Shown piece after piece: positions 10,925 through 63,027 of a stretch of DNA of 64,000 bases. The stretch is taken from the NCBI GenBank assembly GCA_026967815.1, contig JAPUUO010000001.1, positions 4,034-68,033 on the forward strand, written 5' to 3'. Within the stretch, counting starts at the first letter, position 1. Each line of letters begins with the position of its first letter. Under the pieces are notes generated by a model. The model worked only from the letters and a program-made list of their open reading frames with translations. It was not told the DNA's origin and did not search any database. The DNA is from Candidatus Bathyarchaeota archaeon (lineage in GTDB: Archaea; Thermoproteota; Bathyarchaeia; Bathyarchaeales; Bathyarchaeaceae). The translations under genes were made by a program, and so were the position numbers.

Positions 10925-13900
10925 TCATGTCGTGTATCGCGAGTTGACAGCCCAGCTCCCCCCCCTCGTCGTCACCACCCTCCCCAGCAGGGTGTGTATC
11001 TCCGCTATGTGGTGCTCTATCCTCGGCAGACTGCTCAGGTGAGCGTTCGCCGTCTCCATCATCGGCGTGTAGTCTATAGTTCCAGTCACCCCTGCTCCTG
11101 TAGTCCCGGCCTCCATAAGCCGCCTGATAGCCCACACATTCTCGTTCACCATCGCCATGTAGTGCGTCTGCGTCGTCAGAGCTGCCGTGTTCGCGTTAAC
11201 CTCCTCGCTCGTCGCCGACCCTACGGACTTCGCTATTCCGCGTGCCTCCTCCGCATCGCCACGGCTCTGGTAGCCCCACTGCTCAGCCCACGCCATGATG
11301 GCGGCTCCGGCAGCGTTCGCGTCGCGAGCACCCTTGTCCGCCGTCTCCATCACCCTCTCCCAGAAGCCCCGGTCGTAGAAGTCCCCCTCCTCCATCCTGT
11401 CTATCATGTCGAACGTCGGCTTCAGCGCACGCTCCATGGCCCGCGCCATCAGCCCCTCAGTCACCATGTTCTCCACCATCTCCCTGAATTTCTTCCCCAT
11501 CGCATCCGCCGTGTTCCCGAACTCCCTGTAGGCCTCCACCCACGCTTTTGCAAAGTCCCTCGCCGTTGATGACAGGTCTGACCCTATCAGCTGCTCGGCC
11601 ACCTTTCCTTGCAGCTCCGCCAGCCTGTCCATCGTCTCGCGGTACGAGTTCTCGTAATCCCTCAGCTTATCCTCGTCCGTTTTCTTCCCCTTGCTCCGCT
11701 CGGCCTCTGCCTGTTTTCGGTACGCTTCGGCCTGAGCTTGTAAATTTTTCTGTTGGGCTTTGATGTTCCCCACCATTTCTGACCCGAACACACGCTCCAT
11801 TGCCTTTTCGAGCCGACCGTAAGCATACTCCAGCTCCTCCAGTATCCGCTCCTGACGCTCAATCTCTTTGTTTGCCTTGCGGACTTTTGACCCCGTGAGC
11901 CATGAGCCTATGGCAGAGAAAGCTGCTATCGCTCCACCGATTGCCAATAGCCACCAACAAGCCGCCTCGATAGCTATTGCAATAGCGAGTATGGTTGTCA
12001 TTATTGTTGCCGCATTGTTCAGCCCCGACACAAGTCCGTTTACAATATCGCCAAGTTCGCTATCTTCCGCAACACCCATCATGTCGGCGATTGTTTGTAT
12101 TGAGCTTGCCGCAGAGCTGAAAGCGTTTGCCATTGCATTGACGTTCTTTGATAGTTTGGCGATAGCTGCTTTTTGAGCGTCAATGGCGTCTGTGGTGTTC
12201 TGTTCCGCTTTGTTGACCTGTTCAACAGCCTTGTTGCGCTTTTCGGTAGCTTGCGTTACTTTGGTTGTGGCATCGTTAAGGGCAAGTTGAGCCGCAACCC
12301 CCTCGTCAGTATTCAGCTTTCCCTGAGCCTCCAAGTCAGTAACACGCTGCTGTGCTATCGCTTGCTCAGCTTTGGCGGTTTGAATTGCCATATTCAGACC
12401 GACCTCTTGCTGTGCGAACTCGGCTTTTACCCTTGCTTCTTCGGCTTCTGCTGTTCGGTAGTCCTTACGGGCTTTTGCATACTCCTTGAAGCTGTCGATT
12501 ATTCCCTCTATCGGGTTCCTCGTTTCTCTCTCCTCGTTTATCTTGTCAAGTTGCTCGACAAGCGATTTCAAGCCCTCCACATTCTCAGTGTCTTTGACCG
12601 TAGCTATCATCTCCTGCAAACGCTTCTTCATACGGTCAAGAGTCTGAGTGGAAACGCGGTCAAGATCTTGGAACACCTTTATATAATCGTCGCTTGACTT
12701 AAATTCGTCAACAGCGAGTTTAGCCAATTCCTGCGCCTGTTTGTCATAGGACAAAGACACAAGACGGTTACGCTCCTGTGGGTCACGCGTTTCCTTAATT
12801 ATCTTTGCACGTTTCTCGCTCTCTCGCCGTATAATCTCCGTGCGCTGCTCCTCATAGCTCTGCGCTTTTGCCAGCTCTTTCTGCCAATTTGATATATTGG
12901 TGGCCACCTCTTTTTGACCCTCCTGCGCTATCTTCTGCGCCGTGTCACGGTTCTTTTCAATGATGTCGTTCTGATACTTCTCGTATATGTCAGCAAGCAT
13001 CTTGTAGTCGATGCGCTGATTCGTCATGTCAAATACGGGTTCAAGGTCAATCACGACATCCTCCTTGCCACTCTTGAACACTTCCCGAATCTGCGCCACC
13101 GTGTCCTCAAACAGCTCCTCACCCGTAGAGCCGTAGATGCTCAACGACACACGGTTAGCCAACTCCACATCCCCCGTCTGACTAAGTATCTTCTCATAAA
13201 ACTCCTTCGCAGTCTTGGTGCGCGATATGCGGTCGGCAAGGCGTTTCAGCTCGGCTTCGATTTCTCTTTGTTGCTTGTCAATTGCGCTCTTGTCGCGCTT
13301 AAACCCAAGCTCAATAAGTATCTTGTCAGCGTTTTTGATGCCGAGGCGGTTGATTTCCTTGATAATGGCATCATACCATTTCTGCACGTCCTCGATGGTC
13401 TGCGGCACTTCAAATGCAGGGAGCTTGAATTTGTATTTGTCTGCCATTTTCTGCATATCGGCAAAAGATGATGCGAACAGTTTTTGAGTGTCTGCCAACG
13501 CTTTTGTCTGCCCCTCTTTTCTCAGCAAGTCGTCATACTCCTTGTTGATTTGCGCCATTTTGTTGGCAATGTCGTTGAGGATTTGCAGACGCGGGTCGGA
13601 TTGGCGAGTGCCACCACCAGACGTGCTTTTACCAAGAATTTCAGCCATTTTTGAATAAAATTCTTCAAGGTCTTTTGCATTCTCCAATTTATCTGCAATT
13701 TCCTTGTATGCCAATGAAATCACAGGGGTGGCGGCTAAAACTTTTGTAAGGTTTTCAACCTGTTTAGCATAATCCTTAGCGGTATCATTTATTTTCTTTC
13801 GATAGGCTTCCAGCCCCTCTGTTGCACCCATCATATTGCCCCTGACTTTATCGATAAGCCCCATGCTATTGGCAAGTTCCTCAAACTTACTGCGAACACT

Positions 13901-24320: not shown

Positions 24321-24331
24321 AATTGTATTTG

Positions 24332-24403
24332 TGGCGCGGGGCGGACTCGAACCGCCGACCTTAGCCTTATGAGGGCTACGAGCTACCGCTGCTCTACCGC
24401 GCT
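24332..24403 (-). tRNA. tRNA with CAT anticodon (Met; Ile2 or initiator-like not excluded)
   Basis: Hand-folded 72-nt cloverleaf: AGCGCGG-TA-GAGC-AGCGGTA-GCTC-G-TAGCC-CTCATAA-GGCTA-AGGTC-GGCGG-TTCGAGT-CCGCC-CCGCGCC-A. Position 1:72 is an A.C mismatch. No CCA is encoded. Confidence 0.8.
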
Positions 24404-31069: not shown

Positions 31070-34000
31070 TTGATTCCTGACATAATCAAAGTCGGATTCC
31101 CCGACTATGCTACTTTGACCCATGCCACGGTCAGCCTCGCCGATATGGGCGAGAAGTCCATAGCTACCCAAATCAAGATTGATGCCGCTGTCGCGCCCGA
31201 CTTTTCACACGACTGGGAGTTGCGCTTCCAGGGCGAACGTTACATCATGCCGTTGCGCAAACCCCAGGGGTCAAAGGATAATACTACCCTTAATGCGACA
31301 ATAGACCTGACGTTTCAGCATTGGGCCATATATCAGCTTAAACGTTGGATGTTCTTCTCGCTGCCCGATGTGGAGACGGGTTCGCCATCGCCCGACAAGT
31401 GGGTAGTGCCTTTGCAGCTCAATCTCCGCGACTTCTGCGCTGTGTTTGCCCGTGTACTGGAGTATTGGTATGGCGATACTATAACTTTGGATCTTAACCC
31501 TGCGTGGAAGTTCAAGGCGGAGCCGTCTACAGTCGACATCAGCTATTCATTCATATGGGATGTGCTGATTAAGCTCTATGAAATCTATGCCGTCCGTTGG
31601 TTTATCGAGCCTACAGGTGACGCGGACCACTACGTAATCCGCATCGGCTATCCGGCTGTAGAAGTGGAGCATATCTTTGAATACGGTTTTGAGGGCGGTC
31701 TGCTTAAGGTGGAGCGGCAGGTGCAGAGCGAGGAAATTCGCAACATGCTTCTTGGCCGCGGTGGTGACAAAAACCTCCCTTTGCGATATTTTAAGGACAA
31801 GGACCCCGGCAACCCAAAATTCAGTCCCGACCCTGACTGGGTGCAGGAACTCGCCAATATCTATTTTGACCGCCTCCGCGGAGCTACTTTCCGCTCCTAC
31901 GTGCAGGGGTGGAAGGCAGCGCATATATCGGAATATCCGGGCTACACGGCAGTAGGGGAGGACAATGCCTATGCGCCGTGGGCTTACCGCAAAGGCTACA
32001 CGGACGCGAAGTTTGACCCTGTGGAATATGTCAAGGACGATGAGAGCATACTCCTATATGGTCCCCTTCTCGGTGCCCTTGACGATAACGACGATTTTTA
32101 CCCTACGATACAGGGTACTGGCCTTGACATCGCGGTTGATGTGGAGCAGATTCTCAGCGACGATGTGCAGCAGTCGTCTGATGCCACTTCTGTAATATCC
32201 GATGTCAAGGGCGGCTCGCTGACACAGGTAATCTGGCATGGTACCACTGCCTCTTTCGTAATCCCCTGCGGCGACTTCATTGTACCCCCGGATTCGGTGG
32301 GCGTTCTTGTCACTGCGTCTACGGGCGCGTCGGCCTATTGGTGGGACTGGGTCAAACATGATAAAAAGGTGTTCCGTGAGCAGTTTGCCCCCAATGATTT
32401 TGAAATCCTGTCTACCGACATTGATGTCTTTGACTCTGCCGGCAATAAGCTCTCATCTTCTGTCGGGATTCCTCCGGGGGCATATACGTGCCGGGTGCGT
32501 TATGAGGTGATTAACAAGATGGGGCAGCACGTGGACCTCGTGACTACAATCTCATGTAACGGACTCAAACTGACTACTTCGGCTTCGTCCAAACAGTGGT
32601 CCAATACTTTCGACATCTGGGTAAAGAATATCTGGGATTCGGCTCCGTTGCCCTCGGAATCGGATGCGGCTTATGCCAGGCGCGTGTGGGAGCCTGTGCT
32701 CGGTGACAGAGAGGGCAGCGAGGCCAAGGTGCTGTTTACCACAGGCAATCTGGCTGTCAGCGATGACTACGAATTTACCATTGTGGAATATCCCGTTCCT
32801 GACAGTTCTAAATCATATACTTCACCTGATGGCGTGACCCATCAATCCCATTGGCGCATTCGCCTCGCGAAATCCGATGCCGACCTTGAATCTACAGGCG
32901 TGTATGTTCCCTCTACCAAAAGACAGGGTGCCCCGGGTGACCGTTTTGTGTTTATCGGCACGGAGATGACCCACATTCCTTATGTGGTAGATGCAGAGAG
33001 GAGGCTTGACGATTGGAAAACTGACAATCTCGCGGATTTTAAGGACATCCGTCCTACTTGGGTCGTGACGACTGACCGTGTGCGGCTTAACAACGAGGGG
33101 CGGCCTGACGCGCTTATCGGACAGCTTCGTATCGGTAATTCCATCCGTCTTGCCGACAGCCGTTTCATCCAGCCTGTAGGTGATAAGGCTTATGAGACTC
33201 TATATCTCCAGTCGTTGACTATAACTTACCGCGAGCCGAGCAGCGATGATGCGGCTCTCAACCCCGATGTAGAGATAGTTCTCGGCAACGATTATGCGGT
33301 CTCGGCCAATCCTGTATCTACCATGCAGGGCGATATTTCCGCGATACAGCAGCAGCTCGGCTCCATAAGTAATGTGGAGCAGATAGTCCGCGCCGTGGGC
33401 GATAGCCTGTATCTGCGCAAGGATGGCATATCCGACCGTTCGCTCTCGCCCACTCAATTCTTCTCGCTGCTGACTTCGGGCGATTTCCGCAACGGTGTTG
33501 TCGGCGGAGCGGGGTGGGGATTCTTCAAGGACGAGGACGGCAACTGGGTATTGGAGACGGACCGCATAAATGTCCGCAGTGATTTGCAGGTCAATAATCT
33601 TGTCATCAACCAGGTGTCGGCTCGCGGCGGCATGCAGATCGACACGGCGGCTTCGATAACCATTACCAAGGTGATTGAGACGCAGCTTGAATATGTCTGC
33701 TACTTCGACCAGAAAAACGGCTCTGTGGCTAATCTTTTCAAGGTCGGCGATGTGGCCATGTCTATGGTCTATGATGAAAATTGGGACACGGATGCAAACC
33801 TTGTAAAGGCTTACCGCCGCAGGGTGACGGCTGTTGCTCCCGACAGCATCTCTCTGACCAAGGAACGCGATGGAGACCTCCGTCCGTCGTGGTGGATTGA
33901 CAACGGGGTCAACGGCTCGGGAGTGCCATCGGTGGGTGATGTGGTGGTCCACTTCGGCAATTATAACGAGAAGGCTCGTCAGTATGTCAAGGTGCGTGAC

Positions 34001-37000
34001 GTGGTTGGTGGCGGTTATGAACGTTTTATTGACGGCCTTGACTCGGTAAATGCGTCCGGGGTGGAATACTTCTTTGTCGGACGACAGGCTGGTATGTACG
34101 GCGACCGTCCGCGCTGGTTTGTCGGCGATACTAACGGGTACATCGAGTGGGTCAACGGCCATCTTGACATCAAGGGTCGCATCAGCGTACTCTCCACTAT
34201 CGGCGGCAAGCCTGTGGGCGATTATGTCTCGGATGCTGCAAAGGCGGAGGCGGACAAGGCCAAGGCTGAGCTGGAGGCGAGCATCAAGGCTCTACAGGAG
34301 CAGGTTGACGGCGTGATAGAGAGTTTCAGCGGTTTCGGCGCACCCTCGCTGACCAACTTCCCGGCGGTGGAGTGGACCACGGATGCCGAACGCAAGGCTC
34401 ACGACCGCGACATATACACCGACCGCACTCCCTATGTCGATGATGCCACTACGCCTACTTCGGGACACTCCTGGAAGTGGTACTACAACACGCCTACCGA
34501 CTACGGATGGACCAAAATAGCCGATTCGGACGCTGTCAAGGCTTTGCAGATGGCGCAGATGTCTGTCCGCGATTCCGATGTCTACTTTATCTCGCACACT
34601 TCTGCCACATCCGCGCCTCCATTGCCTGTAATAGGTATCAACGGCGAGATTACCGATGCCAAAGGGTGGTCTACGTCGGCTCCTGCATGGCAGCAGGACA
34701 AGTATATCTGGCAGACTACCTACACGGTCAAGGGCGACGGCTCTGTGTCGTTCACCGACCCGACCTGCATATCGGGTCGCAACGGCAAAGGCATTGCGTC
34801 AATCACGGAGCAATACTACCTGTCGACATCGCGCGACAATCCCGTCGGAAGCTCTGTCGGTTGGACCGACCGTGACCACCGCGAGCAGTGGACTGTGGGC
34901 AAATACTGGTGGACGCGCTCGAAGATAACCTACACCGACGGCACGAGCGAATACATCGGGGAGGTCTGCGTCACAGGCGCGGACGGCGTGGACGGCACGT
35001 CCGTGCTGGCAAGGTATTCGTCTGACCTTGCGAACTGGCATCCCACGATGCTCGCCACGGACATATACATGCAGACATCCTCAGACGGAGGCAAAACATG
35101 GTCGCCAGCTGTGAGGATGACAGGTAGCGACTACACCGAAAACCTCATGCTAAAGACGGAGGAGCGCATAGAACTGACATACTCCACCGACGGCGACCAC
35201 TGGAGCGGATGGCCCGACCGAACCATCCACATGGAGCAGGGGCAGACCTACACCATATCGGGGCGCACCAACGCCGAGGCATTCACAAATGTGCATACAG
35301 CCTCCATCGGGCTTTCAAGATGCGTCCTGTGGATATGCTCAAACCCGCAGTCGCCGCAGGGCGAGGTAAACCAGGTTGTGTCGGGTACTGACATGGCAAC
35401 CGACGGCTCCACCGGCCACACGTTCGTATGGACCCGACCCACGGGAGACTACTACCTGCGCACGAACTTCTACTCGGCTGGTACATGGTGGGTTGAAAAG
35501 GTCAAGGTGGAGAAAGGGCGCAACCCCTCGCCCGTGTGGACTCCCAACAGCTCGGAGATGGTGGGCGTGGACGGTCGCTGGCAGAAAATGCAGTGGGCTA
35601 AGAACAACTCGGAGACCGCAGCACCCACAAGCGGATGGCAGGACACGCCTTTGTCCGCCCTCCCCGGCGAATACATATGGACGCGCAGCGGATGGGTCAT
35701 ACCTCCGGCTACGGAGCCGTCATCCTACGGTGACGCGGTGCGCATCACGGGCGATGCAGGAAGCAACGGAAGCGATGTCTACCGCCTTGACCTTGACAAC
35801 GAGATGGCGGCGGTGGCGGTACGCCCCGATGGAGGTCTTGACAGCAATTCCGTGCTCCCTACAGCTAATGCCAGCGTCTATAAGGGAGCGACAAAGCTGA
35901 CAAGCGGCGTTGTTTTCTCCATTCCTCAGTATGACGGTGTCGCAGGGGTTTCAATCTCTCCCGAGGGCAAGGTGCAGGTACTCGGAACTGTCATGTCCAA
36001 TGTGGCAAGGATAACCGTACAGGCCGTTGTTGACGGGCTGACGCTCACAACCATAATGACCGTCTACAAGGTCAAGCCGGGACATGACGGCGCATCTGCC
36101 AAGGTTGTGGTGGTCAATGCCGACTCGCAGGTGTTCTCCTATGCCGACGATTTCTCGGGCAGCCCCTCGCCGTCTGCCATACGCATCACGGCCTCGGTGC
36201 AGGGCATCGCGTCTCCGGCTTACAGCTGGAGCTACAAGTTCCCCGGCGATGCGGATTTCACCGCTTATGGCGCAGAGACAGGCGCGGTGCTCACCCTGTC
36301 GCCCACATGGCAGCAGTGGGGCAACCGCCGCTCTGTGACATGGCGGTGCACTGTCGACGGGGTGCATGACGAGGTGACGGTGGCAAAGGTCAGCAGTGGA
36401 AAGAACGGCACGGACGGCACGGATGCCTACACCGTGCTGCTGACGAACGAATCGCACACTTTCGCAGGCGACGAGTCCGCAGCACTCGCTTCTTCCGCCG
36501 AATGCTCGGTGGTAGCATACAAGGGCGCGGTGCAGACCGCCGTGACAATAGGCACCGTCACGGGCGCACCCCAGGGCATGTCGGTACAGACCGCCAACAA
36601 CGGCACGACCTCCGCCAAAATCACCGTCAGCGTCACGCCGTCGCTCAAACAACGGCAGGGTGTGCTGAAAATCCCCGTGAGCGTTGACGGCAAATCGTTC
36701 ACTAAAGACTTCTCTTGGTCGCTCGCACTCAAAGGCGAGGCTGTCACGGTAGACAAGGGCAAATCGTCCGTCACATATCAGACATCCACCAACTACACCA
36801 CGCCCCCCACAGGCCAATGGCTGACGGCTGTGCCGTCTGTGCCCAACGGACATTATCTGTGGACGCGCACAATCGTTGCATACACCGACGGCAATTCCAC
36901 TACGGCCTACAGTGTGGCACGGCAGGGTGTTAATGGCACAGACGGCACTAATGGCACAAACGGAGACAGCTACACCAACAATATACTCCGCAACACCGAC

Positions 37001-39724
37001 TTCCGCGAGGGCGGCCGTCATTGGTGGTTCATGTCAAACGGCGTGACGGCGGTTGATACTTCAAGGGTGTTCCAGGGACGTGTGTCGCTGAGGTCATCGC
37101 AGAGCGGAGCGACGACTTCGAAGCCGTGCGGATGGATAGCCGGCAGCGACAACGAGTTCATCCCTGCCAAAAAGGGCGATGTCATAACCCTGAGCTGCTG
37201 GGTGTGCTGCGATAATCCCTCTGCCATTGACGGAGACGTAGTAGCGGAGATATATTGGCGCGACGCAGCCAAGCAGCGAATAGCCACGTCGGTCTATAAC
37301 CACGCTTCTTTCATGCCGTCCGGGCCGGGGACTTGGACGCTCCGCTCTCTGACGAGCGATGTTGCTCCCGAGGGTACTGCGTATGCGGAACTGCGCTGCC
37401 AGCTGACGCAAAACGGCACGGTGTGGTTCAACGGCATCAAGGCGGAGTACGGCGCGAACACCGCTCCTGTATGGACTCCTTTTGCCGAGGGTACGGCTCT
37501 GGACGGCCAGTCTGTGACATACGCCAAATCGTCAACGGCATCCCAGCCGTCCGACTCGGCTTTCACGGCCACGAGCATCGGCCAGCTCGGACTCGCCCCG
37601 GGTGAATACATGTGGAGCAAGACGGAGGTAAGATACTCCGACGGCACGGTGACAAAGAGCTACATGGTGGCGCGTGTCGGCACGGACGGCACGGGCGGAT
37701 TGCCGGGTGCTCCGGGCAAGGATGGCAAGACCACATACGTCCATTTCGCCTACGCAAATTCGGCTGACGGCGTAAAGGACTTTTCCACAACGCCTTTCGC
37801 AGGGGCGAAATACCTCGGCACATGCTCGGATTTCAACCAGCCCGACCCGACCACTCCGTCAAGCTACCAGTGGAGCGAATACAAGGGCTCGGACGCCGTG
37901 ATATACGAAATCATACCGAGCGTAGACAAAATCACGCGCTCTTTCACGGGCGAGCTGTCAGCTTCATCGGTAAGATGCTCGGTCTACAAGACCGTAGGCG
38001 GCACACGGACACTGACCGTAGAGAAATATCTTAGATACACGCGCTACCCCGACGGCGCGACAGGTGCGATGCCGCATCTGGGCATATCCGTAAACACCGT
38101 TGACATTCTTGACGACACTACCGAAGTAGTGTTCGAGCTTTACAACAGCTCCACGGAGCTTAACGAAGCAAACCTGCTTGACCGCGAGAGGGTGCTTGTG
38201 CTGACGGATGCCGCGGGGCTTGAAATCGGAGGCACGAACCTGCTGCGCAACTCGGCTGCTACAATAGAGCGGACGTACACCGATTACGGCGACCATTTCT
38301 TCCCATTGCCAGACCGCACGATACACATGGAGCAAGGGAAAGTCTACACAATATCCGCGCAGACCAACGCGGAGTTCATAGACCCATCCAAGCACAGCAA
38401 CGTCAACGGCGGTGTCCTCGGCTACTGGGTGTCGCTGTGGATAGTCTCGCCCTCTCCGCAGCCAACGGACGGCAGCGCGGTCAATATACTTGTGACAGGC
38501 GAGGACATGGCTTCGGACGGCAGCAAGGGACATGTGTTCAAGTGGCTCAAACCTACAGGCGACTATGTGCTTCGAGTCAACTTCTACGCTCCCGGCACAT
38601 GGTGGGTCAAGAAGATAATGATTGAGCGCGGCAATGTGGCCTCTGCATGGTCTCCGAGTCCCGAGGACATGGACTATCTGACCCGCGCCCTGCGCGAGAG
38701 CATCACCATGGACGGCGGTCTGCTGCTGGCCACTCTCATCAAGCTGGGCTACACAGACCCCGGCGGTCTGTACAAGGTGATGGCAGGTGTCAACGGCTCG
38801 TACACCTCTCCATCCGACATAGCTTTCTGGTCGGGAGGCGAGATGGTCGACAAACTGCCTCCGCAGTCCGTTGCCTCGGTGCAGGCCGCTTCGGAACTTG
38901 CGGCACAGGCAGAGGGAGCTACCTATGTGATGCGTATGAACGGCACCGGCTACATGGCCGACGGTGTGCTGCGCTTTGAAAAAAATCATATAGGGGTGGG
39001 CGACTCAGTGATACTCGACAACTCAGGGCTGCATCTGATGGACGGCGACAGCGAAAGACTTCGCATCGCCAACACCCCGATTGACGAAAAGTTCCTCAAT
39101 GCGCAGTTAGGCAAAACTGAAATTTCCGCAGGACCCTTCTCTGGTAGGCTGGCTTTCGTGCGAAGGTATTCGCCCCACGACAACGGCACGTTTTATCCAC
39201 GTTCAGGCATGACCGTTGAACTATGGAGCGGCACTCTTACGAAGGACTCGTTCGTGTCATTGTCCGTATCGTATTTTGACAACCTTGTCCGCGTAGGGAG
39301 CGATGTTGTCAATCCGTCTTGGTCCGCCCGTCCATACATTGAGGTGACAAGGGGGAACAAGTACACACACTTTAAAAGCAGCAGCAGCACAGCAGCCAGC
39401 TTCACAGTCCCCGAGGATGATACATATTACATATTTCTGCGCATAGACCAGGACACATATACAGGCGGCTCGCCATCGGATCATAATTCAATAGATGTGG
39501 AGTACAGCTCAATCAAACTTGCAGGCTATTCCTCGCCTCCTACCTCGGTGGGACTCACCCTCGGAAATAACGGATTCGCAGGGATATTTGACAAAATCGC
39601 CTTGATAGCCAACCCCGACGGCATAACCATGATGGCGGGGAACTACGGATTGAGACTGACACCAGCCAGAGGCATACAATACAACAAGACCGGTCTCGAC
39701 ACCGGGTGGACAAACCTCGTATAG
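31070..39724 (+). CDS. Giant tail fibre / host-specificity protein (2884 aa, Tal-like N-terminus)
   Basis: TTG start (the frame opens at 31064 and there is no upstream ATG). Contains repeated YxW(T/S)(R/K)..Y(T/S)DG motifs, short collagen-like GxxGxxG runs, and three internal N(L/I)LRN..VW(T/S)P modules. Confidence 0.8.
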   Translation: MIPDIIKVGFPDYATLTHATVSLADMGEKSIATQIKIDAAVAPDFSHDWELRFQGERYIMPLRKPQGSKDNTTLNATIDLTFQHWAIYQLKRWMFFSLPDVETGSPSPDKWVVPLQLNLRDFCAVFARVLEYWYGDTITLDLNPAWKFKAEPSTVDISYSFIWDVLIKLYEIYAVRWFIEPTGDADHYVIRIGYPAVEVEHIFEYGFEGGLLKVERQVQSEEIRNMLLGRGGDKNLPLRYFKDKDPGNPKFSPDPDWVQELANIYFDRLRGATFRSYVQGWKAAHISEYPGYTAVGEDNAYAPWAYRKGYTDAKFDPVEYVKDDESILLYGPLLGALDDNDDFYPTIQGTGLDIAVDVEQILSDDVQQSSDATSVISDVKGGSLTQVIWHGTTASFVIPCGDFIVPPDSVGVLVTASTGASAYWWDWVKHDKKVFREQFAPNDFEILSTDIDVFDSAGNKLSSSVGIPPGAYTCRVRYEVINKMGQHVDLVTTISCNGLKLTTSASSKQWSNTFDIWVKNIWDSAPLPSESDAAYARRVWEPVLGDREGSEAKVLFTTGNLAVSDDYEFTIVEYPVPDSSKSYTSPDGVTHQSHWRIRLAKSDADLESTGVYVPSTKRQGAPGDRFVFIGTEMTHIPYVVDAERRLDDWKTDNLADFKDIRPTWVVTTDRVRLNNEGRPDALIGQLRIGNSIRLADSRFIQPVGDKAYETLYLQSLTITYREPSSDDAALNPDVEIVLGNDYAVSANPVSTMQGDISAIQQQLGSISNVEQIVRAVGDSLYLRKDGISDRSLSPTQFFSLLTSGDFRNGVVGGAGWGFFKDEDGNWVLETDRINVRSDLQVNNLVINQVSARGGMQIDTAASITITKVIETQLEYVCYFDQKNGSVANLFKVGDVAMSMVYDENWDTDANLVKAYRRRVTAVAPDSISLTKERDGDLRPSWWIDNGVNGSGVPSVGDVVVHFGNYNEKARQYVKVRDVVGGGYERFIDGLDSVNASGVEYFFVGRQAGMYGDRPRWFVGDTNGYIEWVNGHLDIKGRISVLSTIGGKPVGDYVSDAAKAEADKAKAELEASIKALQEQVDGVIESFSGFGAPSLTNFPAVEWTTDAERKAHDRDIYTDRTPYVDDATTPTSGHSWKWYYNTPTDYGWTKIADSDAVKALQMAQMSVRDSDVYFISHTSATSAPPLPVIGINGEITDAKGWSTSAPAWQQDKYIWQTTYTVKGDGSVSFTDPTCISGRNGKGIASITEQYYLSTSRDNPVGSSVGWTDRDHREQWTVGKYWWTRSKITYTDGTSEYIGEVCVTGADGVDGTSVLARYSSDLANWHPTMLATDIYMQTSSDGGKTWSPAVRMTGSDYTENLMLKTEERIELTYSTDGDHWSGWPDRTIHMEQGQTYTISGRTNAEAFTNVHTASIGLSRCVLWICSNPQSPQGEVNQVVSGTDMATDGSTGHTFVWTRPTGDYYLRTNFYSAGTWWVEKVKVEKGRNPSPVWTPNSSEMVGVDGRWQKMQWAKNNSETAAPTSGWQDTPLSALPGEYIWTRSGWVIPPATEPSSYGDAVRITGDAGSNGSDVYRLDLDNEMAAVAVRPDGGLDSNSVLPTANASVYKGATKLTSGVVFSIPQYDGVAGVSISPEGKVQVLGTVMSNVARITVQAVVDGLTLTTIMTVYKVKPGHDGASAKVVVVNADSQVFSYADDFSGSPSPSAIRITASVQGIASPAYSWSYKFPGDADFTAYGAETGAVLTLSPTWQQWGNRRSVTWRCTVDGVHDEVTVAKVSSGKNGTDGTDAYTVLLTNESHTFAGDESAALASSAECSVVAYKGAVQTAVTIGTVTGAPQGMSVQTANNGTTSAKITVSVTPSLKQRQGVLKIPVSVDGKSFTKDFSWSLALKGEAVTVDKGKSSVTYQTSTNYTTPPTGQWLTAVPSVPNGHYLWTRTIVAYTDGNSTTAYSVARQGVNGTDGTNGTNGDSYTNNILRNTDFREGGRHWWFMSNGVTAVDTSRVFQGRVSLRSSQSGATTSKPCGWIAGSDNEFIPAKKGDVITLSCWVCCDNPSAIDGDVVAEIYWRDAAKQRIATSVYNHASFMPSGPGTWTLRSLTSDVAPEGTAYAELRCQLTQNGTVWFNGIKAEYGANTAPVWTPFAEGTALDGQSVTYAKSSTASQPSDSAFTATSIGQLGLAPGEYMWSKTEVRYSDGTVTKSYMVARVGTDGTGGLPGAPGKDGKTTYVHFAYANSADGVKDFSTTPFAGAKYLGTCSDFNQPDPTTPSSYQWSEYKGSDAVIYEIIPSVDKITRSFTGELSASSVRCSVYKTVGGTRTLTVEKYLRYTRYPDGATGAMPHLGISVNTVDILDDTTEVVFELYNSSTELNEANLLDRERVLVLTDAAGLEIGGTNLLRNSAATIERTYTDYGDHFFPLPDRTIHMEQGKVYTISAQTNAEFIDPSKHSNVNGGVLGYWVSLWIVSPSPQPTDGSAVNILVTGEDMASDGSKGHVFKWLKPTGDYVLRVNFYAPGTWWVKKIMIERGNVASAWSPSPEDMDYLTRALRESITMDGGLLLATLIKLGYTDPGGLYKVMAGVNGSYTSPSDIAFWSGGEMVDKLPPQSVASVQAASELAAQAEGATYVMRMNGTGYMADGVLRFEKNHIGVGDSVILDNSGLHLMDGDSERLRIANTPIDEKFLNAQLGKTEISAGPFSGRLAFVRRYSPHDNGTFYPRSGMTVELWSGTLTKDSFVSLSVSYFDNLVRVGSDVVNPSWSARPYIEVTRGNKYTHFKSSSSTAASFTVPEDDTYYIFLRIDQDTYTGGSPSDHNSIDVEYSSIKLAGYSSPPTSVGLTLGNNGFAGIFDKIALIANPDGITMMAGNYGLRLTPARGIQYNKTGLDTGWTNLV

Positions 39725-54175: not shown

Positions 54176-54505
54176 TTATTTCGTTTTAGGGTTGACTATT
54201 TCCAATATCTGCTCCAGCTGAGAGTCGGAGAGCTGTTCAAAGATTATATCACTGCATTGGCTTATCATCCTTTGCCGTCTTACCTCTTTTCTGAAATCCT
54301 CCAAATCTTCCTCCGTAGCTATTTCCGCGCTTGCGGAAGTCCAACAGTCAGAAGATACAAGAGTGCCGCTCGACTTGCGGAATTTATAGCCTTTGGCAAT
54401 GACGAAGTTCTTTTGTACCTTTTCAACCGTTAGAATCGTTCGATTCCATCGGCTTGTCATTATCAGTTTGTCGCCCACCTTGGCGTTATCCAATAATCCG
54501 CTCAT
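54176..54505 (-). CDS. Hypothetical protein
   Basis: 109-aa ORF. Confidence 0.45.
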   Translation of the reverse strand: MSGLLDNAKVGDKLIMTSRWNRTILTVEKVQKNFVIAKGYKFRKSSGTLVSSDCWTSASAEIATEEDLEDFRKEVRRQRMISQCSDIIFEQLSDSQLEQILEIVNPKTK

Positions 54506-55168: not shown

Positions 55169-55975
55169 CTATAGTGTTAAATCCAATTTAAGTTGCGCCT
55201 GAGCGTCCTTTACACGCTTCACGGCAATGTCGTAATACTCCTGCATCAGCTCTATGCTGATGCCTCGGCGGTTGGCATTCACGCAAGCGACAAGCGTAGA
55301 GCCACTACCCATCGTACAGTCAAGCACGCAATCGCCCTCGTTGGTGTAGGCTTTAATCAGATACTCCAATAGCGTGACTGGCTTCTGTGTAGGATGATTG
55401 ACTTTCTCCTTTGAGTTTGATACCACCGATGGTATAGTAATCACATTGCCCTGCAATTTGCGGTCGGCGTCAAACGTATGCCAATCTCTTGGAGCGTACT
55501 CAGTGGCAAACGACACTTCCTGCGTAGGCTTCTTGTTTGTGCGCCACTGCTTGCTGTTGCCTTTCTGCGCTTGACGCACCCTATCGGATTTGCGCTCGGT
55601 ATATTGAGGGTTGAATGTGTATCTGCCGTTGGCAAACACTACAATATCCTCGCTGTATTTCAGATGCCGTATTCGGGCGTTGCCGATATTGCTCGGCTTA
55701 TGCTTTACCCACGTCAGTTTCTCCTTGAAAGCGTTATAATTGCTCGCTATCAATGCCGATGTGAACGGCTCACTCGCAAACAGCACGATAGCACCCTTGC
55801 ACACCCGATTAAGTTGTTCCCATAGTGGAGCAAACGGAATTACCACGTCCCATTTGCAGGAGGTTGTTCCATAGGGCAAATCGCAGATTACAGCGTCTAT
55901 GCTGTTATCAGCAAGCGTAGGCAGAATTTCAAGGCAGTCGCCGCGCAGGAGGGTGATGTTGTCTGTCTTATTCAT
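55169..55975 (-). CDS. Orphan beta-class DNA methyltransferase (N4-C or N6-A)
   Basis: From ATG 55975: MNKTDNITLLRGDCLEILPTL..SIDAVICDLPYG..HPTQKPVTLLEYLIKAYTNEGDCVLDCTMGSGST. Confidence 0.8.
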   Translation of the reverse strand: MNKTDNITLLRGDCLEILPTLADNSIDAVICDLPYGTTSCKWDVVIPFAPLWEQLNRVCKGAIVLFASEPFTSALIASNYNAFKEKLTWVKHKPSNIGNARIRHLKYSEDIVVFANGRYTFNPQYTERKSDRVRQAQKGNSKQWRTNKKPTQEVSFATEYAPRDWHTFDADRKLQGNVITIPSVVSNSKEKVNHPTQKPVTLLEYLIKAYTNEGDCVLDCTMGSGSTLVACVNANRRGISIELMQEYYDIAVKRVKDAQAQLKLDLTL

Positions 55976-55978
55976 ATC

Positions 55979-56037
55979 GGCTCTTTTGGCTCTTGGTTCA
56001 TACCGCAAAGTTAAAGCGACATTGCGGATTATCCAAA
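55979..56037 (-). promoter_or_regulatory. Canonical early-left promoter followed by AGAGCC doublet (copy 6)
   Basis: Minus strand reads TTTG (56037-56034) - N20 - TAACTTTG (56013-56006) - 12 nt - AGAGCC AAA AGAGCC (55993-55979) GAT ATG. Confidence 0.6.
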
Positions 56038-56086
56038 TAAACCTATAATGTAGGTTTAAGTTTCGAGAGAGCCGAAAAAGACGTGA

Positions 56087-56572
56087 TTTTGACCCCTATT
56101 TTGAGCAAAATCGGCTGAATCTCCTACACAACTTCATGCCCTCTTTTCTCCCTTTCTCTTTCTCCCTCAGCGAATTAGGCGGTCAAGCTATATAATGTAG
56201 TGTACCTATTTTCTATTTAACTTTTTTCTCTTTCTCTCGTACTATATATTTTTATAGAATTATTTTTTTCGTTTTTCAGTTCATTTACTACATTAAAGAG
56301 ATAAATATATAATAATCAATATTTTATCCGTGTAGTTGCTGGTTCAGTCCGCTGCATTGAGGTGCATAAGTGTTAAAAATATATAAAAGTTTGATTTTGC
56401 ACAGAAACTGAAATTTTGAGCAAAAAAAATTTTTCTGGGTCGCACCCACCCGTTTCAGTCCTGTCGACTCCACACCCCCGGCACCCCTTTGCGGGGTCAA
56501 ATACTCCACGAAATCAACGTGTTACACATGATAAACGGTCGCAACTGTGCTGTAACTCTCAATTTTGACCCC
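56087..56572. repeat. Three dispersed GGGGTCAAA(W) sites and a 13-nt direct repeat ATTTTGAGCAAAA
   Basis: TTTTGACCCC 56087-56096 and TTGACCCC 56565-56572 (both as reverse complement); GGGGTCAA 56493-56500; ATTTTGAGCAAAA at 56098-56110 and 56413-56425. Confidence 0.7.
56139..56238 (+). repeat. Pure polypyrimidine tracts flanking onset of a very AT-rich block
   Basis: A 31-nt C/T-only run lies at 56139-56169 and an 18-nt C/T-only run at 56221-56238. AT-rich sequence continues to about 56420. Confidence 0.75.
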
Positions 56573-56905
56573 TATTTTTACCCTTATTTTGAATGATTCT
56601 AAATAAACAACCGCAAATAATTGAAATTCAACACATTACATTTGGATTCCTCCGCAAATATGCATCATCTCCACCACATCACCAACAATTAAACAAACTT
56701 TAACACGCTCAATAATCGGCTTTCTGTCTTTTCGCGTGTCGCACCGGTTTGTGATCGCCTTCAATTTTTGCCATTGGAGTGTTAAACGCCGTATGCGTGT
56801 AGGCTGTGCGCTTTAGGTGCGATTCTGTGCGAAGCCTCTGTTTCAAGTGTTAAAATCAAGGCCATATTTTGAGAGTTAACCCGCTGAAAATAAACCGCTT
56901 AAAAG

Positions 56906-56936
56906 TTTGACATGTCATAAATTTTCCGTACCTTTG
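56906..56936 (+). promoter_or_regulatory. Canonical rightward promoter
   Basis: TTTG 56906-56909 - N19 - TACCTTTG 56929-56936. Confidence 0.6.
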
Positions 56937-56940
56937 TAGT

Positions 56941-57286
56941 GTAAGGAATGACCAAGCGGAACGCCTTACAATAGGACATTGAAAGAAAAAAGCCCTCAAA
57001 GGCTGCAACCGATGAGGGCGAAAAGGTGTAAAGGCCGACCGATAAAACGGCTATAACCTTTAAAACCCGTTGATATATGAGGCTTGAAATCTCATGGAAG
57101 TTAGGCAAATGGCGGTTTAAAATCATAATCAACCGCTAATGCCTTCGGGGGTTTAAAAATGCTACCAAAGGATAGCGACCCCCGAAAAGGGTTTTAAATC
57201 ACTCGCAAAGATAGCACAAACTTTGCAAAGATGCAACAGGCAAACGAAAAACCGCCCCGTTTGTCTGTCACAGATGAAGGGCGGTT
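56941..57286 (+). ncRNA. Long highly structured leader / ncRNA candidate (~350 nt)
   Basis: There is no ORF. At least seven hairpins were hand-folded, e.g. GTAAGG/CCTTAC 56941-56969, GCCCTCA/TGAGGGC 56992-57019, TTCGGGGGT/ACCCCCGAA 57144-57187 and AACCGCCC/GGGCGGTT 57250-57286. GGTTTAAAA and CAAAG(A/G)TA motifs recur. Confidence 0.4.
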
Positions 57287-57356
57287 AATTCAAATTAAGT
57301 TCCTGCAAAGGTACGACAATTCAAATTAAGTTTCACTATCAAATTCAAATTAAGTT
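57287..57356 (+). repeat. Three perfect 15-bp direct repeats AATTCAAATTAAGTT abutting a start codon
   Basis: Copies at 57287-57301, 57318-57332 and 57342-57356, with the ATG at 57357. Confidence 0.9.
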
Positions 57357-57995
57357 ATGACAAACAAAATTAACACCGGTGTTAATTCCACCATGAACGC
57401 AAACGAAATCAACGCCCGCACAAAATCCATCAACGGCATAATGAATCAGGCTAACCGCTTAATGTCGGTATGCAACATGGTTCGGAACTTCAAACGTGCC
57501 AATGCTATCCGTGAAATCGCTTTCCGCTATTACGACAACATTCGCGCTTGTGTCGGACGGTTCAACTACAACGACGATAGTGAGTATAACAAAGAGTATT
57601 CACGCGCCCAATACATGAACGCAAAAGAAACAAAAGCCCCCGAATTTTCGGAACTGTCACACACTGCAACTTCCGCAATTTGCCCGCTTGATTTCGATAC
57701 GACTTTCGACGCATACAATTACGCAATGGCGCACCGCCTTGATGAAAGCCCGTTAGCCGTTGCAATACCCACCGACGCCCACGGCACGGACTACGGTCGC
57801 AGTCTCGCACTAAACGGCGTTAAGTTGTTCGCCGTATGGTCTGACGAACTGGAGGAAACCGCAAACGGCTATGTCTATACGACCGAGGCCGGAGCGCGTG
57901 AAGCCATGGCACAAGTCGAAGATAACGATAAAGAGGCCGGAGTATATGAGCCTAACTACTGGAAAGTGTCCGATATGACAAAATATTTCGCATGA
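57357..57995 (+). CDS. Hypothetical protein
   Basis: 212-aa ORF, first gene of the rightward block. Confidence 0.55.
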   Translation: MTNKINTGVNSTMNANEINARTKSINGIMNQANRLMSVCNMVRNFKRANAIREIAFRYYDNIRACVGRFNYNDDSEYNKEYSRAQYMNAKETKAPEFSELSHTATSAICPLDFDTTFDAYNYAMAHRLDESPLAVAIPTDAHGTDYGRSLALNGVKLFAVWSDELEETANGYVYTTEAGAREAMAQVEDNDKEAGVYEPNYWKVSDMTKYFA

Positions 57996-60722: not shown

Positions 60723-61517
60723 ATGGCACGATACATATACGCGAGGTGCAGCACCATTGAGCAGGACTTTATGCAACAGCAGAACTGCGTAAACACCTAT
60801 CTTACGCAACACGGCGTCAACCCCGACAAGGACATAGCAAAAACTGTGGTCGAGAAAATATCCGGCACGGTACGGCATACCGAGCGCAAACTTGCCGGGC
60901 TTCTCGCCAAATGCAAGCAGGACGATATAATCTATATCTCCGAGCTATCCCGACTTGGCCGTAACATGTCAGATTTGTTCGCCATCGTCACCGAATCGTG
61001 CGAGAAAGGTGTTACAATCGTGCAGTGCAAAGACGGCAGCACGATAGAGAACGAAAGCATAGGCGGAAAGGCACTTTTATTTGCCCTCTCGCTCGCCGCA
61101 GAGATTGAAGTGCAGAACATACGCCAGCGTACACAAATGGGCCTGGATGCACGTAAAAAGCTATTGGAAGAGCAGGGCAGCTTCATCAGCAAGTCGGGCA
61201 ATATATGTACCAAATTTGGCCGTCCCAAGCGCGTCGAGGGCGAACCTTATGACCTGTCGGGCCTTGAGGCCGCAGCGGCAGCCAAAACCGACGCGGCAAT
61301 ACGTTGGCGCGAGAAGTCGCAGGCCGTCCGATTTGTCCGCCGCAAACGCAAAGAGGGGTGGGGCATAGTCCAGATAACCGAGGAACTTGGCAAGATGTAC
61401 GACGAGTTTGCAACAGCAGAAGGGAGCATAAACCCCTACGCCACGCCCTCCGGCTGCAAGCCTCAAAAAGGCACCGTGTCGCGTTGGTGCCGTGAGATGA
61501 ACCCGATTGCTATTTAA
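60723..61517 (+). CDS. Small serine recombinase (resolvase/invertase family)
   Basis: MARYIYARCSTIEQD contains the catalytic Ser context. Also has IYISELSRLGRN and AEIEVQNIRQRTQMGL, plus a C-terminal extension. Confidence 0.75.
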   Translation: MARYIYARCSTIEQDFMQQQNCVNTYLTQHGVNPDKDIAKTVVEKISGTVRHTERKLAGLLAKCKQDDIIYISELSRLGRNMSDLFAIVTESCEKGVTIVQCKDGSTIENESIGGKALLFALSLAAEIEVQNIRQRTQMGLDARKKLLEEQGSFISKSGNICTKFGRPKRVEGEPYDLSGLEAAAAAKTDAAIRWREKSQAVRFVRRKRKEGWGIVQITEELGKMYDEFATAEGSINPYATPSGCKPQKGTVSRWCREMNPIAI

Positions 61518-61791: not shown

Positions 61792-63027
61792 TCATTTCGC
61801 CCACTCCGGTATCGGCATATCATCGTCGGGTGTCTCGTTAAGCGAGAAGTCTATAATCTTGCGGATTGCCAAATCAGCCTGAAAGCGCATTACTTTCATG
61901 TAGTTGAATATCGGCCGAGAGTTTGCATCCTTGATACTTTGTCCTATGGCATATTCAAGAACGTAAAGCGGTATCCCAAGCTGCTGACCGAACTGCACGA
62001 AAGTTTTTCGGGCGGAGTAAAACATCAGCTTTTTCTCAAAGCCCAAATCTTCGCCGATTTTATTCAGCCCTTTGGTCACAAAAGAGCGGAACTGCTCATA
62101 TTGGCTGTAATTGTAGCCGAATTCAAGCCTCCCATCTCTGGTGATGTATTTGTCGATGATTACTCGTGCTTCGGGCTGTATCGTCAAGGAAACGCCTTTC
62201 TCGCCCGTCTTTTTTGCCGCCGTCTTTTTGCGCACAAAGTTGATGGTATCACCGTCCAGCTTCGCATCCATAAGGTCGGTAAGGTTGATTCCGGCGAAGT
62301 AGAACGAGAGCATGAACAAATCCCTCGCGATGGTATGCCGACGCTCTGACACGCCTTTAAATTCCGCTTCACGCAACTTTCCCAACTCGTCTTTGCTTAT
62401 CCAAATCTCGCGAATGTTCTTCATCGGCATACGGTAGTTCGCGAATGGCGGTATTTTATATTCAACCGCGCCCGTCTTTACGGCGTGATTCAACAACGCC
62501 TTAAGATGTGTCATGCGGATGTTGATTGTAGTGTCAGACTGCCCTTTTTTTCGTAGGTGGTTTTCAAACAATTCAAGAGCGATATACGAGAAATCTTTCA
62601 ACCGCACGTTGTCGCCGAAACAGTCAAATATGGCCTTTACGGTATATCCCATGTTTTGAGCATAGGACTTCTGATTGTTTTCTTTAAGTCGGGCTATATA
62701 TTTTTCTGCAAGTGTCGTGAAACTTTCTTTGTCGGGCGTGGCGTCGCTTTCAAACCACTCTCTTATCTTGGATGCTGGCATGTTTTTAGGCGGGTCAAGT
62801 TCATCGAGCTTTGTTTGATAGGCACACAGCATCTGCGATAACTTGGCGTTAATCATTGCAGCTTGCGGATGCCGCACTACCTGGCCGCCGTTCCATTGCT
62901 TTTTTTCGACGGAGTATTGAGTAGCGATATAGGTTACACTTGTTCCATTGGTGATTTTAAATCGAATGGCAAATGTTCCGTCTTGCTTGGGACGGGAAGT
63001 GACGATACAAAGTGAGATTGTAGCCAT
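61792..63027 (-). CDS. int: Tyrosine integrase (Bacteroidota phage-integrase type)
   Basis: 411 aa. Has an N-terminal arm-binding-like domain (MATISLCIVTSRPKQDGTFAIRFKITNG), a SAM-like core and a C-terminal catalytic region ..YSARKTFVQFGQQLGIPLYVLEYAIGQS. Confidence 0.8.
   Translation of the reverse strand: MATISLCIVTSRPKQDGTFAIRFKITNGTSVTYIATQYSVEKKQWNGGQVVRHPQAAMINAKLSQMLCAYQTKLDELDPPKNMPASKIREWFESDATPDKESFTTLAEKYIARLKENNQKSYAQNMGYTVKAIFDCFGDNVRLKDFSYIALELFENHLRKKGQSDTTINIRMTHLKALLNHAVKTGAVEYKIPPFANYRMPMKNIREIWISKDELGKLREAEFKGVSERRHTIARDLFMLSFYFAGINLTDLMDAKLDGDTINFVRKKTAAKKTGEKGVSLTIQPEARVIIDKYITRDGRLEFGYNYSQYEQFRSFVTKGLNKIGEDLGFEKKLMFYSARKTFVQFGQQLGIPLYVLEYAIGQSIKDANSRPIFNYMKVMRFQADLAIRKIIDFSLNETPDDDMPIPEWAK

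Follow-up and report, generated by a model that had tools for sequence, protein, structure and literature searches.

Positions 56941-57356 of the window, the 64,000-nucleotide (nt) stretch of DNA that was analysed, look from sequence like a composite regulatory region in which two stacked sense/antisense units head a rightward accessory operon. The window is a temperate Bacteroidales (Muribaculaceae-type) phage or prophage. In the best-supported reading, to which we give an even chance, the core module at 57236-57356 (unit C) is a sense/antisense switch and the upstream part at 56941-57235 (unit L) is an accessory cassette. An earlier sequence-only reading had treated the whole region as one single leader. 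Comparison with relatives contradicted this, as only 57236-57356 is common to all of them: the core module recurs in 16 Bacteroidales/Muribaculaceae phage lineages, always preceding a variable first gene, and the upstream cassette is separate from the core, its stretch 56955-57235 being found in only 6 of the 16. Strong folding of the leader, claimed in the same reading, was borne out. The 420 nt from 56941 to 57360 folded at -122.9 kcal/mol with a z score of -5.45 against shuffles (reverse strand z -5.59), and the two hairpins it had named (57144-57187 and 57250-57286) were present in the minimum free energy structure. Half of the signal lies on the minus strand and had been overlooked.

Relatives, designated here by L numbers, were gathered through IMG/VR homologues of a 212-amino-acid (aa) protein, through promoter and intergenic words, and through protein homologues and contig look-ups. 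Their taxonomic assignments were uncultured Bacteroidales, Muribaculaceae and Paramuribaculum intestinale. Sixteen distinct lineages carry one common module directly upstream of the first rightward gene. This first gene differs in most of them (small membrane proteins and unrelated proteins of 48-312 aa), and therefore the module travels with the promoter and not with a particular gene. In ten of the sixteen lineages the module begins 5-40 nt past the -7 box of the promoter, giving a leader of about 100 nt; the other six (the window, L306, L336, L344, L002 and L333) have about 300 extra nt between promoter and module. The start of the downstream gene was called at the same ATG (57357) in an independent contig. 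Blastn against INPHARED did not find a cultured relative. Scans with promoter words returned mostly unrelated Bacteroidota phage promoters and only L154/L197 as new relatives, and a 17-mer of the conserved upstream block, scanned in metagenomes and genomes, gave mostly chance matches plus L271. The promoter and core features in the window are the following.

56906-56936 (+), promoter P1, with -33 TTTG at 56906-56909 and -7 TACCTTTG at 56929-56936 (TTTG-N19-TAccTTTG)
57236-57246 (+), S1a, pseudoknot strand
57247-57249 (+), L1 (A-rich), pseudoknot loop
57250-57257 (+), S2a, pseudoknot strand
57258-57268 (+), S1b, pseudoknot strand
57269-57278 (+), L3, pseudoknot loop
57279-57286 (+), S2b, pseudoknot strand
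57287-57301 (+), repeat copy 1, AATTCAAATTAAGTT, predicted template of the antisense 5' tail
57306-57313 (-), predicted antisense promoter -7 box TACCTTTG, with 4 nt between it and each of repeats 1 and 2
57318-57332 (+), repeat copy 2, AATTCAAATTAAGTT, proposed extra mRNA pairing site, upstream of the antisense -7 box
57342-57356 (+), repeat copy 3, AATTCAAATTAAGTT, proposed pairing site on the translation initiation region, abutting ATG 57357
57242-57301 (-), predicted cis-antisense RNA of about 60 nt, with 5' tail AACUUAAUUUGAAUU, hairpin and U-run UUUUUCGUUUG

P1 matches the Bacteroidota σABfr promoter consensus (PMC7366714). The pattern TTTG-N18-22-TAnnTTTG is enriched in the window (7 occurrences against 1.1 expected, with 0 of 100 shuffles reaching 7), and the surroundings of P1 (56885-56955) are 82-93% identical in L001, L005 and L154. 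Given this predicted Bacteroidota-type promoter at 56906-56936, the transcription start site (TSS) that had been placed at about 56941 is reasonable.

The sense strand of the core has the topology of an H-type pseudoknot, with the order S1a, L1, S2a, S1b, L3 and S2b kept in every lineage. Over 257 stem positions in the 16 lineages, the S1 and S2 pairs comprised 247 Watson-Crick pairs, 10 G·U pairs and 0 mismatches, with stem sequences that are rewritten between lineages (S1 examples are ACAGGCAAACG, GGACAAAC, AGGAATGACC, ATGAACGG, AGATGAAA and AGGGAG) and have no cross-complementarity between stems of different lineages. S1 scored above composition-matched shuffles in 6 of the 7 lineages tested (P 0.0004-0.024); L271 was weak. 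Across lineages S1 measures 6-11 bp, S2 5-9 bp, L1 2-10 nt, L2 0-5 nt and L3 9-16 nt, and these loop lengths are compatible with a real H-type pseudoknot. All G·U pairs of S1 and S2 are G·U on the + strand, and because of this, and because S1a lies beyond the U-run of the predicted antisense RNA, S1 is a sense-RNA feature. Variable-length stems were misaligned by MAFFT and RNAalifold, and hand segmentation and covariance-model realignment were used instead. Stem covariation in relatives had been put forward as a check on the leader; it was found for the core, complete in all 16 lineages, through the hand segmentation.

The minus strand of the same nucleotides is predicted to encode a small RNA. 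In 15 of 16 lineages S2 is followed, 16-22 nt downstream, by a reverse TAnnTTTG box (chance 0.011-0.025 per interval), and no forward-strand box was found in these intervals in the 16 lineages. The sequence-only reading had noted recurring CAAAG(A/G)TA motifs, and the recurrence is true (full 8-mers at 57206-57213 and 57306-57313); their meaning had been missed, as CAAAG(A/G)TA is the reverse complement of TAnnTTTG and the motifs thus read as reverse-strand -7 boxes. Transcripts predicted from the reverse boxes are 55-61 nt long, and all fold as an 11-16-nt unpaired AU-rich tail, a hairpin and a U-run. In the window the tail AACUUAAUUUGAAUU is the complement of repeat 1, the hairpin consists of an outer stem S2', an inner stem UCUG/CAGA and the loop UGA (fold z -3.3), and the A-rich L1, read on the minus strand, supplies the U-run right behind the S2 hairpin. 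The S2' hairpin with UUUUUCGUUUG fits an intrinsic terminator, though its apical region is large. The sole conserved loop sequence of the module, TCACAGA on the + strand (UCUGUGA on the minus strand), belongs to this hairpin. In 10 of the 16 segmented lineages and in L331 the inner stem is capped by GUGA or by the variants GAGA (L331) and GCGA (L302, L338), all of them GNRA, and in the 6 long-leader lineages it is UCUG-(U/C)GA-CAGA or the compensatory UCCG-UGA-CGGA. G·U pairs of the inner stem occur on the minus strand only (L001, L005-type, L271). A covariance model of the minus-strand hairpin gave one match in the window, at 57243-57298 (-) with 56 bits, and exactly one match per relative, including L336 and L338, which had been left out of model building. 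Pairing and covariation on the model-fitted alignment beat all 500 shuffles, although such an alignment leans towards the model. At the sequence level, a promoter and a terminator of its own are thus predicted opposite the target leader, as is expected of a cis-antisense RNA, and both RNAs, the sense pseudoknot and the antisense hairpin RNA, appear from these patterns to be under selection.

A 109-aa protein encoded at 54176-54505 (-) matched Pfam Phage_ProQ_C_like with 31.2 bits, above the cutoff of 27. Antisense RNA and terminator hairpins are targets of ProQ/FinO-type proteins, which makes this protein a candidate partner of the predicted antisense RNAs.

The three perfect 15-mers that had been described, spaced by 31 and 24 bp with the last touching the ATG at 57357, were confirmed exactly. 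No further perfect copy was found in the 64 kb; the other matches have 2-3 mismatches and their number (5 against 2.75 expected) is that of chance. A scan of IMG/VR for the exact 15-mer gave single chance matches only. The repeated unit starts at the base of the S2 hairpin, with 4 nt between its end and the reverse -7 box, in the window, L001, L002/L333, L306, L336 and L344. As the -7 element is centred at -7 (PMC7366714), the unit ends at about the predicted antisense TSS, and for this reason copy 1 is taken as the template of the antisense tail; because the copies are identical, the other copies are by construction perfect targets of this tail. Copy number follows the distance from S2 to the ATG, and no more than about 10 nt ever separate the last copy from the ATG.

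L154, L271 and L326: S2 to ATG 28-29 nt, no repeats, reverse box abutting the ATG
Nine lineages (e.g. L001, L002, L005): intermediate, S2 to ATG 33-46 nt, two copies
The window, L306, L336 and L344: long, S2 to ATG 66-70 nt, three copies

The repeat sequence differs between phages, even close relatives, and changes together in all copies. The window and L306 share S1 and S2 and have different triple repeats, and L344 differs from L306/L336 by one G->C that is found in all three copies. The repeat and translation initiation region alone is unstructured (-4.5 kcal/mol, z +0.5), and duplexes between tail and target are predicted at -12 to -18 kcal/mol across lineages, with -14.2 kcal/mol for the window tail with copy 2. 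From this arrangement the repeats are most likely one template and two extra target sites for an antisense RNA of about 60 nt that would lie over the start codon. In L001 (3826-3843) the unit includes the ATG, and copy 1 makes a 4-codon mini-ORF (open reading frame; ATG CTA CAA AGG TAG) that overlaps the reverse -7 box.

From the sequence features, their conservation and their covariation we infer transcripts, pairing and a regulatory outcome of the following kind. The mRNA leader of unit C would fold into the H-type pseudoknot (S1 and S2) and continue as an unstructured AU-rich stretch up to the AUG. The σABfr-type -7 box at 57313->57306 would drive the antisense RNA of about 60 nt, ending at the U-run, and its 5' tail would pair with the repeat copies, both in cis and on the translation initiation region. 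Translation in the Bacteroidota does not use Shine-Dalgarno pairing, and the initiation region needs to be single-stranded; pairing at the last copy would cover this region and lead to an initiation block or to cleavage. Full complementarity over copy 1 and the hairpin could form an RNase target. The sense pseudoknot would sequester those leader nucleotides to which the antisense apical region is complementary, and could thereby gate pairing, protect the 5' end, or both, and the repeat sequence would serve as a phage-specific address. A more specific form of this proposal, which we hold tentatively and at somewhat less than an even chance, is a self-addressing antisense system in which copy 1 templates the seed and the downstream copies act as portable, reprogrammable translation operators, with the pseudoknot gating access and, in some phages, the upstream cassette gating transcription. 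An operator array that occludes initiation had been one of the earlier suggestions; it is probably right in effect, as the last copy lies on the initiation region, with RNA-RNA pairing now favoured over DNA operators.

Several points weigh against the sense/antisense switch. The transcripts on either strand are sequence predictions. A -33 TTTG at the canonical spacing, about 19-21 nt upstream of the -7 box, is present for P1 and absent from both reverse promoters in the window; the -33 element is reported to be dispensable or undetected in some Bacteroidota (PMC7366714). The distal box of L302 is imperfect (TAACTTTA), and the minus strand of S2 contains a C·A in L154. The apical region of the antisense hairpin is 19-24 nt and some lineages have only three U's directly behind the stem, and termination efficiency is uncertain for these two reasons. 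The perfect identity of the repeats could come from recent duplication or gene conversion, the copies of L327 have diverged, and a sequence-specific protein could be using the same repeats. The model also leaves the function of the S1 pseudoknot unexplained.

The protein-based version of this last objection holds that the repeats are DNA operators of a phage protein, an immunity repressor or a Cro/Cox-like protein, which flank the reverse -7 box and whose sequence sets heteroimmunity. Copies 1 and 2 are symmetrical about the reverse -7 box with 4 nt on each side, the forward and reverse promoters stand face-to-face, the unit is phage-specific and altered in concert, and the phage is temperate, as it has an integrase. 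The P2 C repressor at Pe likewise binds direct repeats in a face-to-face promoter switch. Pfam and PHROGs recognised no helix-turn-helix or DNA-binding neighbour, with most of the small neighbouring proteins being without annotation, and neither the other early promoter nor the remainder of the window has the 15-mer. The copies show no regular helical phasing, standing 31 and 24 bp apart here and 18-32 bp apart in relatives. Operators are rarely perfectly identical, and L002 and L333 have the same repeats with a first gene that differs beyond its N-terminus. Protein operators would leave unexplained why the ends of the unit coincide exactly with the hairpin base and the predicted antisense TSS, and why some lineages have no repeats. 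We consider this explanation unlikely, if far from negligible.

Less probable again is a purely sense-strand operator, in which an RNA- or single-strand-binding protein acts on translation, or the repeats act as enhancers of ribosome or S1 loading, and the reverse boxes are incidental. The layout is like that of the T4 gene 32 operator (PMC535899), S1 and S2 covary with + strand G·U pairs, the repeats hold UUAAA/UAAA-like words, and the translation initiation region is unstructured. Against this, the regulated gene is not a single-strand-binding protein (SSB) and varies between phages, with no Pfam or PHROG match for the first genes, and non-specific cooperative binding needs no perfect, phage-specific repeats. 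Such an operator would not account for the reverse -7 box at its fixed offset (P about 0.02 per lineage), for loop variants that all keep GNRA, for inner-stem G·U pairs confined to the minus strand, or for the U-run. We therefore regard the sense-only operator as improbable, and the sense/antisense switch remains our preferred account of unit C.

Unit L, upstream of the core in six lineages, repeats the theme of opposed predicted transcripts with different elements.

56941-56969 (+), 5'-terminal hairpin GTAAGG…CCTTAC of the P1 transcript, in the minimum free energy structure
56981-57019 (-), predicted intrinsic terminator, hairpin 57019->56992 followed by UUUUUUCUUUC at 56991->56981; -17.4 kcal/mol, z -4.1
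57077-57139 (+), micro-ORF MRLEISWKLGKWRFKIIINR, 20 aa, a conserved ATG ORF
57141-57195 (+), branched terminator-like hairpin (TTCGGGGGT/ACCCCCGAA), UUUU at 57192-57195; -24.3 kcal/mol, z -3.8
57205-57226 (both strands), palindrome GCAAAG…CTTTGC, back-to-back -7 boxes
57213->57206 (-), reverse -7 box TATCTTTG, promoter of a predicted antisense RNA of about 220 nt
57218-57225 (+), degenerate forward box AAACTTTG, possible P2, 10 nt upstream of S1a

Among the long leaders the upstream part is only about 58% identical with few conserved pairs. The region had been reported to contain no ORF. This was wrong, as a 20-codon ATG ORF has kept its place, its length and its peptide pattern in those long-leader relatives that are complete; in L306 only its 3' end is present, the locus being cut.

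L333: micro-ORF peptide MRIEIAFKVGKWTVKIILRR, 20 aa
L336: micro-ORF peptide MLIEVISVRFGWFKFVLLSIKR, 22 aa
L002: micro-ORF peptide MIVLEIAIKVGRFKVVKFTITLL, 23 aa
L344: micro-ORF peptide MIVFEIAIKVGRFKVVKFTITLL, 23 aa

Changes within the micro-ORF are synonymous or conservative (AGG->CGT, ATC->ATA, L->I/V, W->F) and the position of the stop is kept (TAA->TGA). The peptides are cationic and amphipathic, the window copy having a net charge of about +5. The + strand hairpin starts 2 nt behind the micro-ORF stop in the window and 1-5 nt behind it across the long leaders, and an equivalent hairpin with U4-7 is found in L002, L333, L306, L336 and L344. As an intrinsic terminator, 57141-57195 has a U-run of only UUUU. 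On the opposite strand the terminator, which was picked up by a terminator scan and stands just inside the start of the P1 transcript, is kept, with altered stem and a UUUUNUUUU run, in L002, L333, L336 and L344. The sequence CAAAGATA…CTTTGC of the palindrome is invariant in 6 of 6 long leaders, and the spacing of its forward box to S1a resembles the position of the promoter in short-leader relatives. When the window was compared with L001 and L302, the first 15 nt of the P1 transcript turned out to serve as pseudoknot strand S1a in L001. Two minus-strand ORFs of the leader (77 aa and 50 aa) were rejected, as neither is conserved. Word scans with GAAAATAAACCGCTTAAA and with the micro-ORF word yielded no new relatives.

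In the proposed organisation of unit L, P1 would give a structured RNA of about 255 nt that contains the 20-aa micro-ORF and ends at the + strand terminator, and the reverse -7 box together with the minus-strand terminator predicts an antisense RNA of about 220 nt over the micro-ORF. Gene 57357 may be served by read-through from P1, by a weak P2, or by both. A separate RNA of about 250 nt ending near 57198 had been among the earlier suggestions; as a transcription unit it is supported by the hairpin and U-run at 57141-57195, present in all long leaders, and as a pure small RNA (sRNA) it is not. The conserved micro-ORF within the P1 unit makes a small mRNA or a leader-peptide unit the more probable identity. 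It could work as a leader-peptide attenuator that gates read-through into unit C, where a ribosome at the stop codon would melt the 5' arm of the terminator, or it could be one half of a type-I-toxin-antitoxin-like pair. Two points count against this part of the proposal: the sequences behind the micro-ORF number only five, and RNAalifold of the long structured part gave -20.5 vs -23.3 kcal/mol on the two strands.

The same comparison bears on the suggestion that all 415 nt form one large cis-regulatory RNA, such as a riboswitch that senses a ligand. Its strong folding (z -5.45) and the internal + strand terminator, as a possible expression platform, are in keeping with this. Rfam returned no family at gathering score for the window and 14 relatives, and at E<=10 the matches in 55900-57500 were at chance level only (E 2-10). 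Ten of the 16 lineages do without the upstream 300 nt, so that leaders are mostly of about 100 nt; the long leaders share about 58% identity and few conserved pairs, and their upstream part contains the conserved micro-ORF. There is no invariant core resembling a ligand pocket, and the TCACAGA loop is not evidence of one because it is better explained as an opposite-strand GNRA or triloop cap. The riboswitch reading is already largely refuted by the comparative data and we consider it highly improbable.

The forward and reverse -7 boxes extend into a 13-nt inverted repeat, 12/13 complementary (56927-56939 and 57303-57315), and L001 has a perfect 11-nt version of it. This arrangement, together with a resolvase/invertase gene at 60723-61517, raises the idea that the segment between the inverted boxes is flipped by the serine recombinase, which would put the S2 terminator behind P1 as a phase-variable ON/OFF switch. 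The inverted repeats are short, they consist of no more than the promoter consensus and show no extension in L154, L271 and L005, the orientation was the same in 3 of 3 independent assemblies (the window, L324 and L325, with 0-1 differences per 1.4 kb), and no inverted variant was found among the relatives, leaving inversion a very slim prospect. Equally hard to credit is a role of the repeats as replication-origin iterons or as a site of packaging or recombination: AT-rich direct repeats do lie beside a GC-rich hairpin in a large intergenic region near replication genes, but three lineages have no copy and the others no more than 2-3, their position is always tied to the start codon and promoter box, an adjacent initiator gene is absent, and there is no site-specific compositional shift.

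The kind of control proposed for unit C, antisense pairing and a structured leader ahead of the start codon, is known from P22 sar, P1 c4 and the T4 gene 32 operator. P22 sar/ant (immI) is alike in having a small antisense RNA that starts at a promoter within the leader or an intercistronic stretch of a temperate-phage accessory operon, is complementary to the downstream initiation region and ends at an intrinsic terminator (PMC2629481). It differs in that the predicted antisense promoter here is usually upstream of the initiation region, with duplicated seed copies supplying the complementarity, and in that the target leader has a covarying pseudoknot and σABfr promoters; there is no sequence similarity. 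The c4 RNA of P1/P7 and the CI RNA of P4 are repressors that use short recognition sequences as repeated, phage-specific targets in the leader of the controlled operon, and the target sets the specificity among related phages. Those RNAs are processed from the same sense transcript and act on it in trans, whereas a separately promoted cis-antisense RNA with copy 1 as template is predicted here. A role of the c4 RNA in P1 immunity has been described (PMC8201110). In the T4 gene 32 operator a 5' pseudoknot precedes an unstructured stretch of more than 40 nt that has UUAAA/UAAA repeats and covers the start (PMC535899), and the core module is similar in its H-type pseudoknot followed by unstructured AU-rich repeated words that cover the start codon. 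In contrast to the T4 operator, which is autogenous and bound by gp32, the gene here is variable and not an SSB, the repeats are long and perfect, and a predicted antisense unit overlaps them.

Within the host phylum, the sRNA GibS of Bacteroides uses a single-stranded 5' seed on translation initiation regions and represses its targets (PMC7366714), and the proposed mechanism therefore has a precedent there. GibS and the DonS family of Bacteroides share with the predicted antisense RNA the host phylum, the promoter type and the absence of Hfq or Shine-Dalgarno pairing (PMC7366714). They differ in being chromosomal, 78-128 nt or longer, and without a repeated target array or pseudoknot, and there is no sequence or Rfam relation. 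P2-type switches have convergent promoters, with direct repeats that flank one promoter core and differ between heteroimmune relatives. Here no repressor was found, the reverse transcript is predicted to meet a terminator after about 60 nt, and the repeats reach the start codon. Unit L resembles type I toxin-antitoxin systems and leader-peptide attenuators in its short ORF on a structured small mRNA, its predicted convergent antisense RNA and its stop codon directly before a terminator, and architectures reminiscent of type I toxin-antitoxin systems have been reported in B. thetaiotaomicron (PMC7366714). The peptide of 20-23 aa is too short and too charged to be a typical membrane-spanning type I toxin, and unlike in attenuators, no regulatory codon run or alternative antiterminator was identified in unit L. 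What sets the locus apart at the sequence level is the combination of one template copy with planted target copies, the independently covarying sense and antisense structures on the same nucleotides, and the Bacteroidota context.

The regulatory region sits within a 1.35-kb divergent gap that separates a leftward from a rightward gene block and that is identical in independent assemblies (0 and 1 differences over 1.4 kb among the window, L324 and L325). The leftward block encodes, by Pfam and PHROG annotation, a DNA methylase, the ProQ-C-like protein, YopX and a DUF5906/VapE-like primase-helicase. The rightward block consists of small genes without annotation, the last being the resolvase-type serine recombinase (60723-61517), and a tyrosine integrase (61792-63027) is convergent to it. 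The DNA word accatgaacgcaaacgaaatcaacgcc (peptide (P)STMNANE) occurs at 57386-57417 in the window and at 4138-4169 in L005, the two being 100% identical, and also in L271, L302 and L306. In these first-gene products, which are otherwise unrelated, it stands at N-termini or domain junctions, and it may mark a junction of mosaic recombination or be an N-terminal tag that they share (NTGVN…TMNANE).

Further upstream in the gap, a mid-gap block at 56325-56500 is 76-86% identical among relatives despite diverged flanks, with counterparts in L001 (3140-3317), L002 (2960-3140), L271 (6000-6188) and L201 (about 14100-14193). It contains GCTGCATTGAGGTGCAT, TTAAAAATATATAAAAGTTTGATTTTG and an A8T5 run and has no match in Rfam. 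The block is noncoding, as its alignment has a 1-nt indel that argues against coding; an origin, an operator region and a further RNA are candidate identities. Words of 11-17 nt, such as ATTTTGACCCCTATTTT and TAAAAGTTTGA, repeat in the gap with a period of about 476-516 bp (56086-56105, 56562-56593, 56368-56394 and 56845-56910 of the window), a pattern that points to an ancient tandem duplication in which a segment with a promoter was copied. In more remote relatives of the 212-aa protein the leader is of another type, about 370 nt long (L003 3600-3970 and L004 3640-3970), with dense GC-rich hairpins, a + strand hairpin with TTTATTTTG, and CAAAGTTATG or CGAAGATATG preceding the start codon; the pseudoknot/antisense covariance model gave no match in these two leaders. 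Elsewhere in the window there are two giant ORFs, 31070-39724 (+) of 2884 aa, which lies within a stretch of raised G+C (0.58-0.60 vs about 0.48 elsewhere), and 10925-16564 (-) of 1879 aa, and a phage-borne tRNA-Met (CAT) at 24331-24403 (-) is the sole Rfam/ARAGORN match in the window.

Temperate phages of the Muribaculaceae and Bacteroidales are abundant in mammalian guts, and to our knowledge nothing is known of the regulatory switches of these phages. Their hosts lack Shine-Dalgarno initiation and Hfq, and how RNA controls translation there is an open question, for which this locus is a compact and comparatively well-supported candidate that joins a pseudoknot with a predicted 60-nt antisense RNA and, over the start codon, a repeated seed-target array. 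The analysis adds an unannotated RNA family, represented in 16 lineages and with a covariance model that recovers every member, as well as a conserved 20-aa micro-ORF missed by gene callers. The locus may explain how a hypervariable accessory-gene cassette comes under phage-specific control. If the proposed mechanism is true, the same change in all repeat copies would give a phage a new private regulatory channel, a form of heteroimmunity at the RNA level, for its hypervariable early/accessory cassette.

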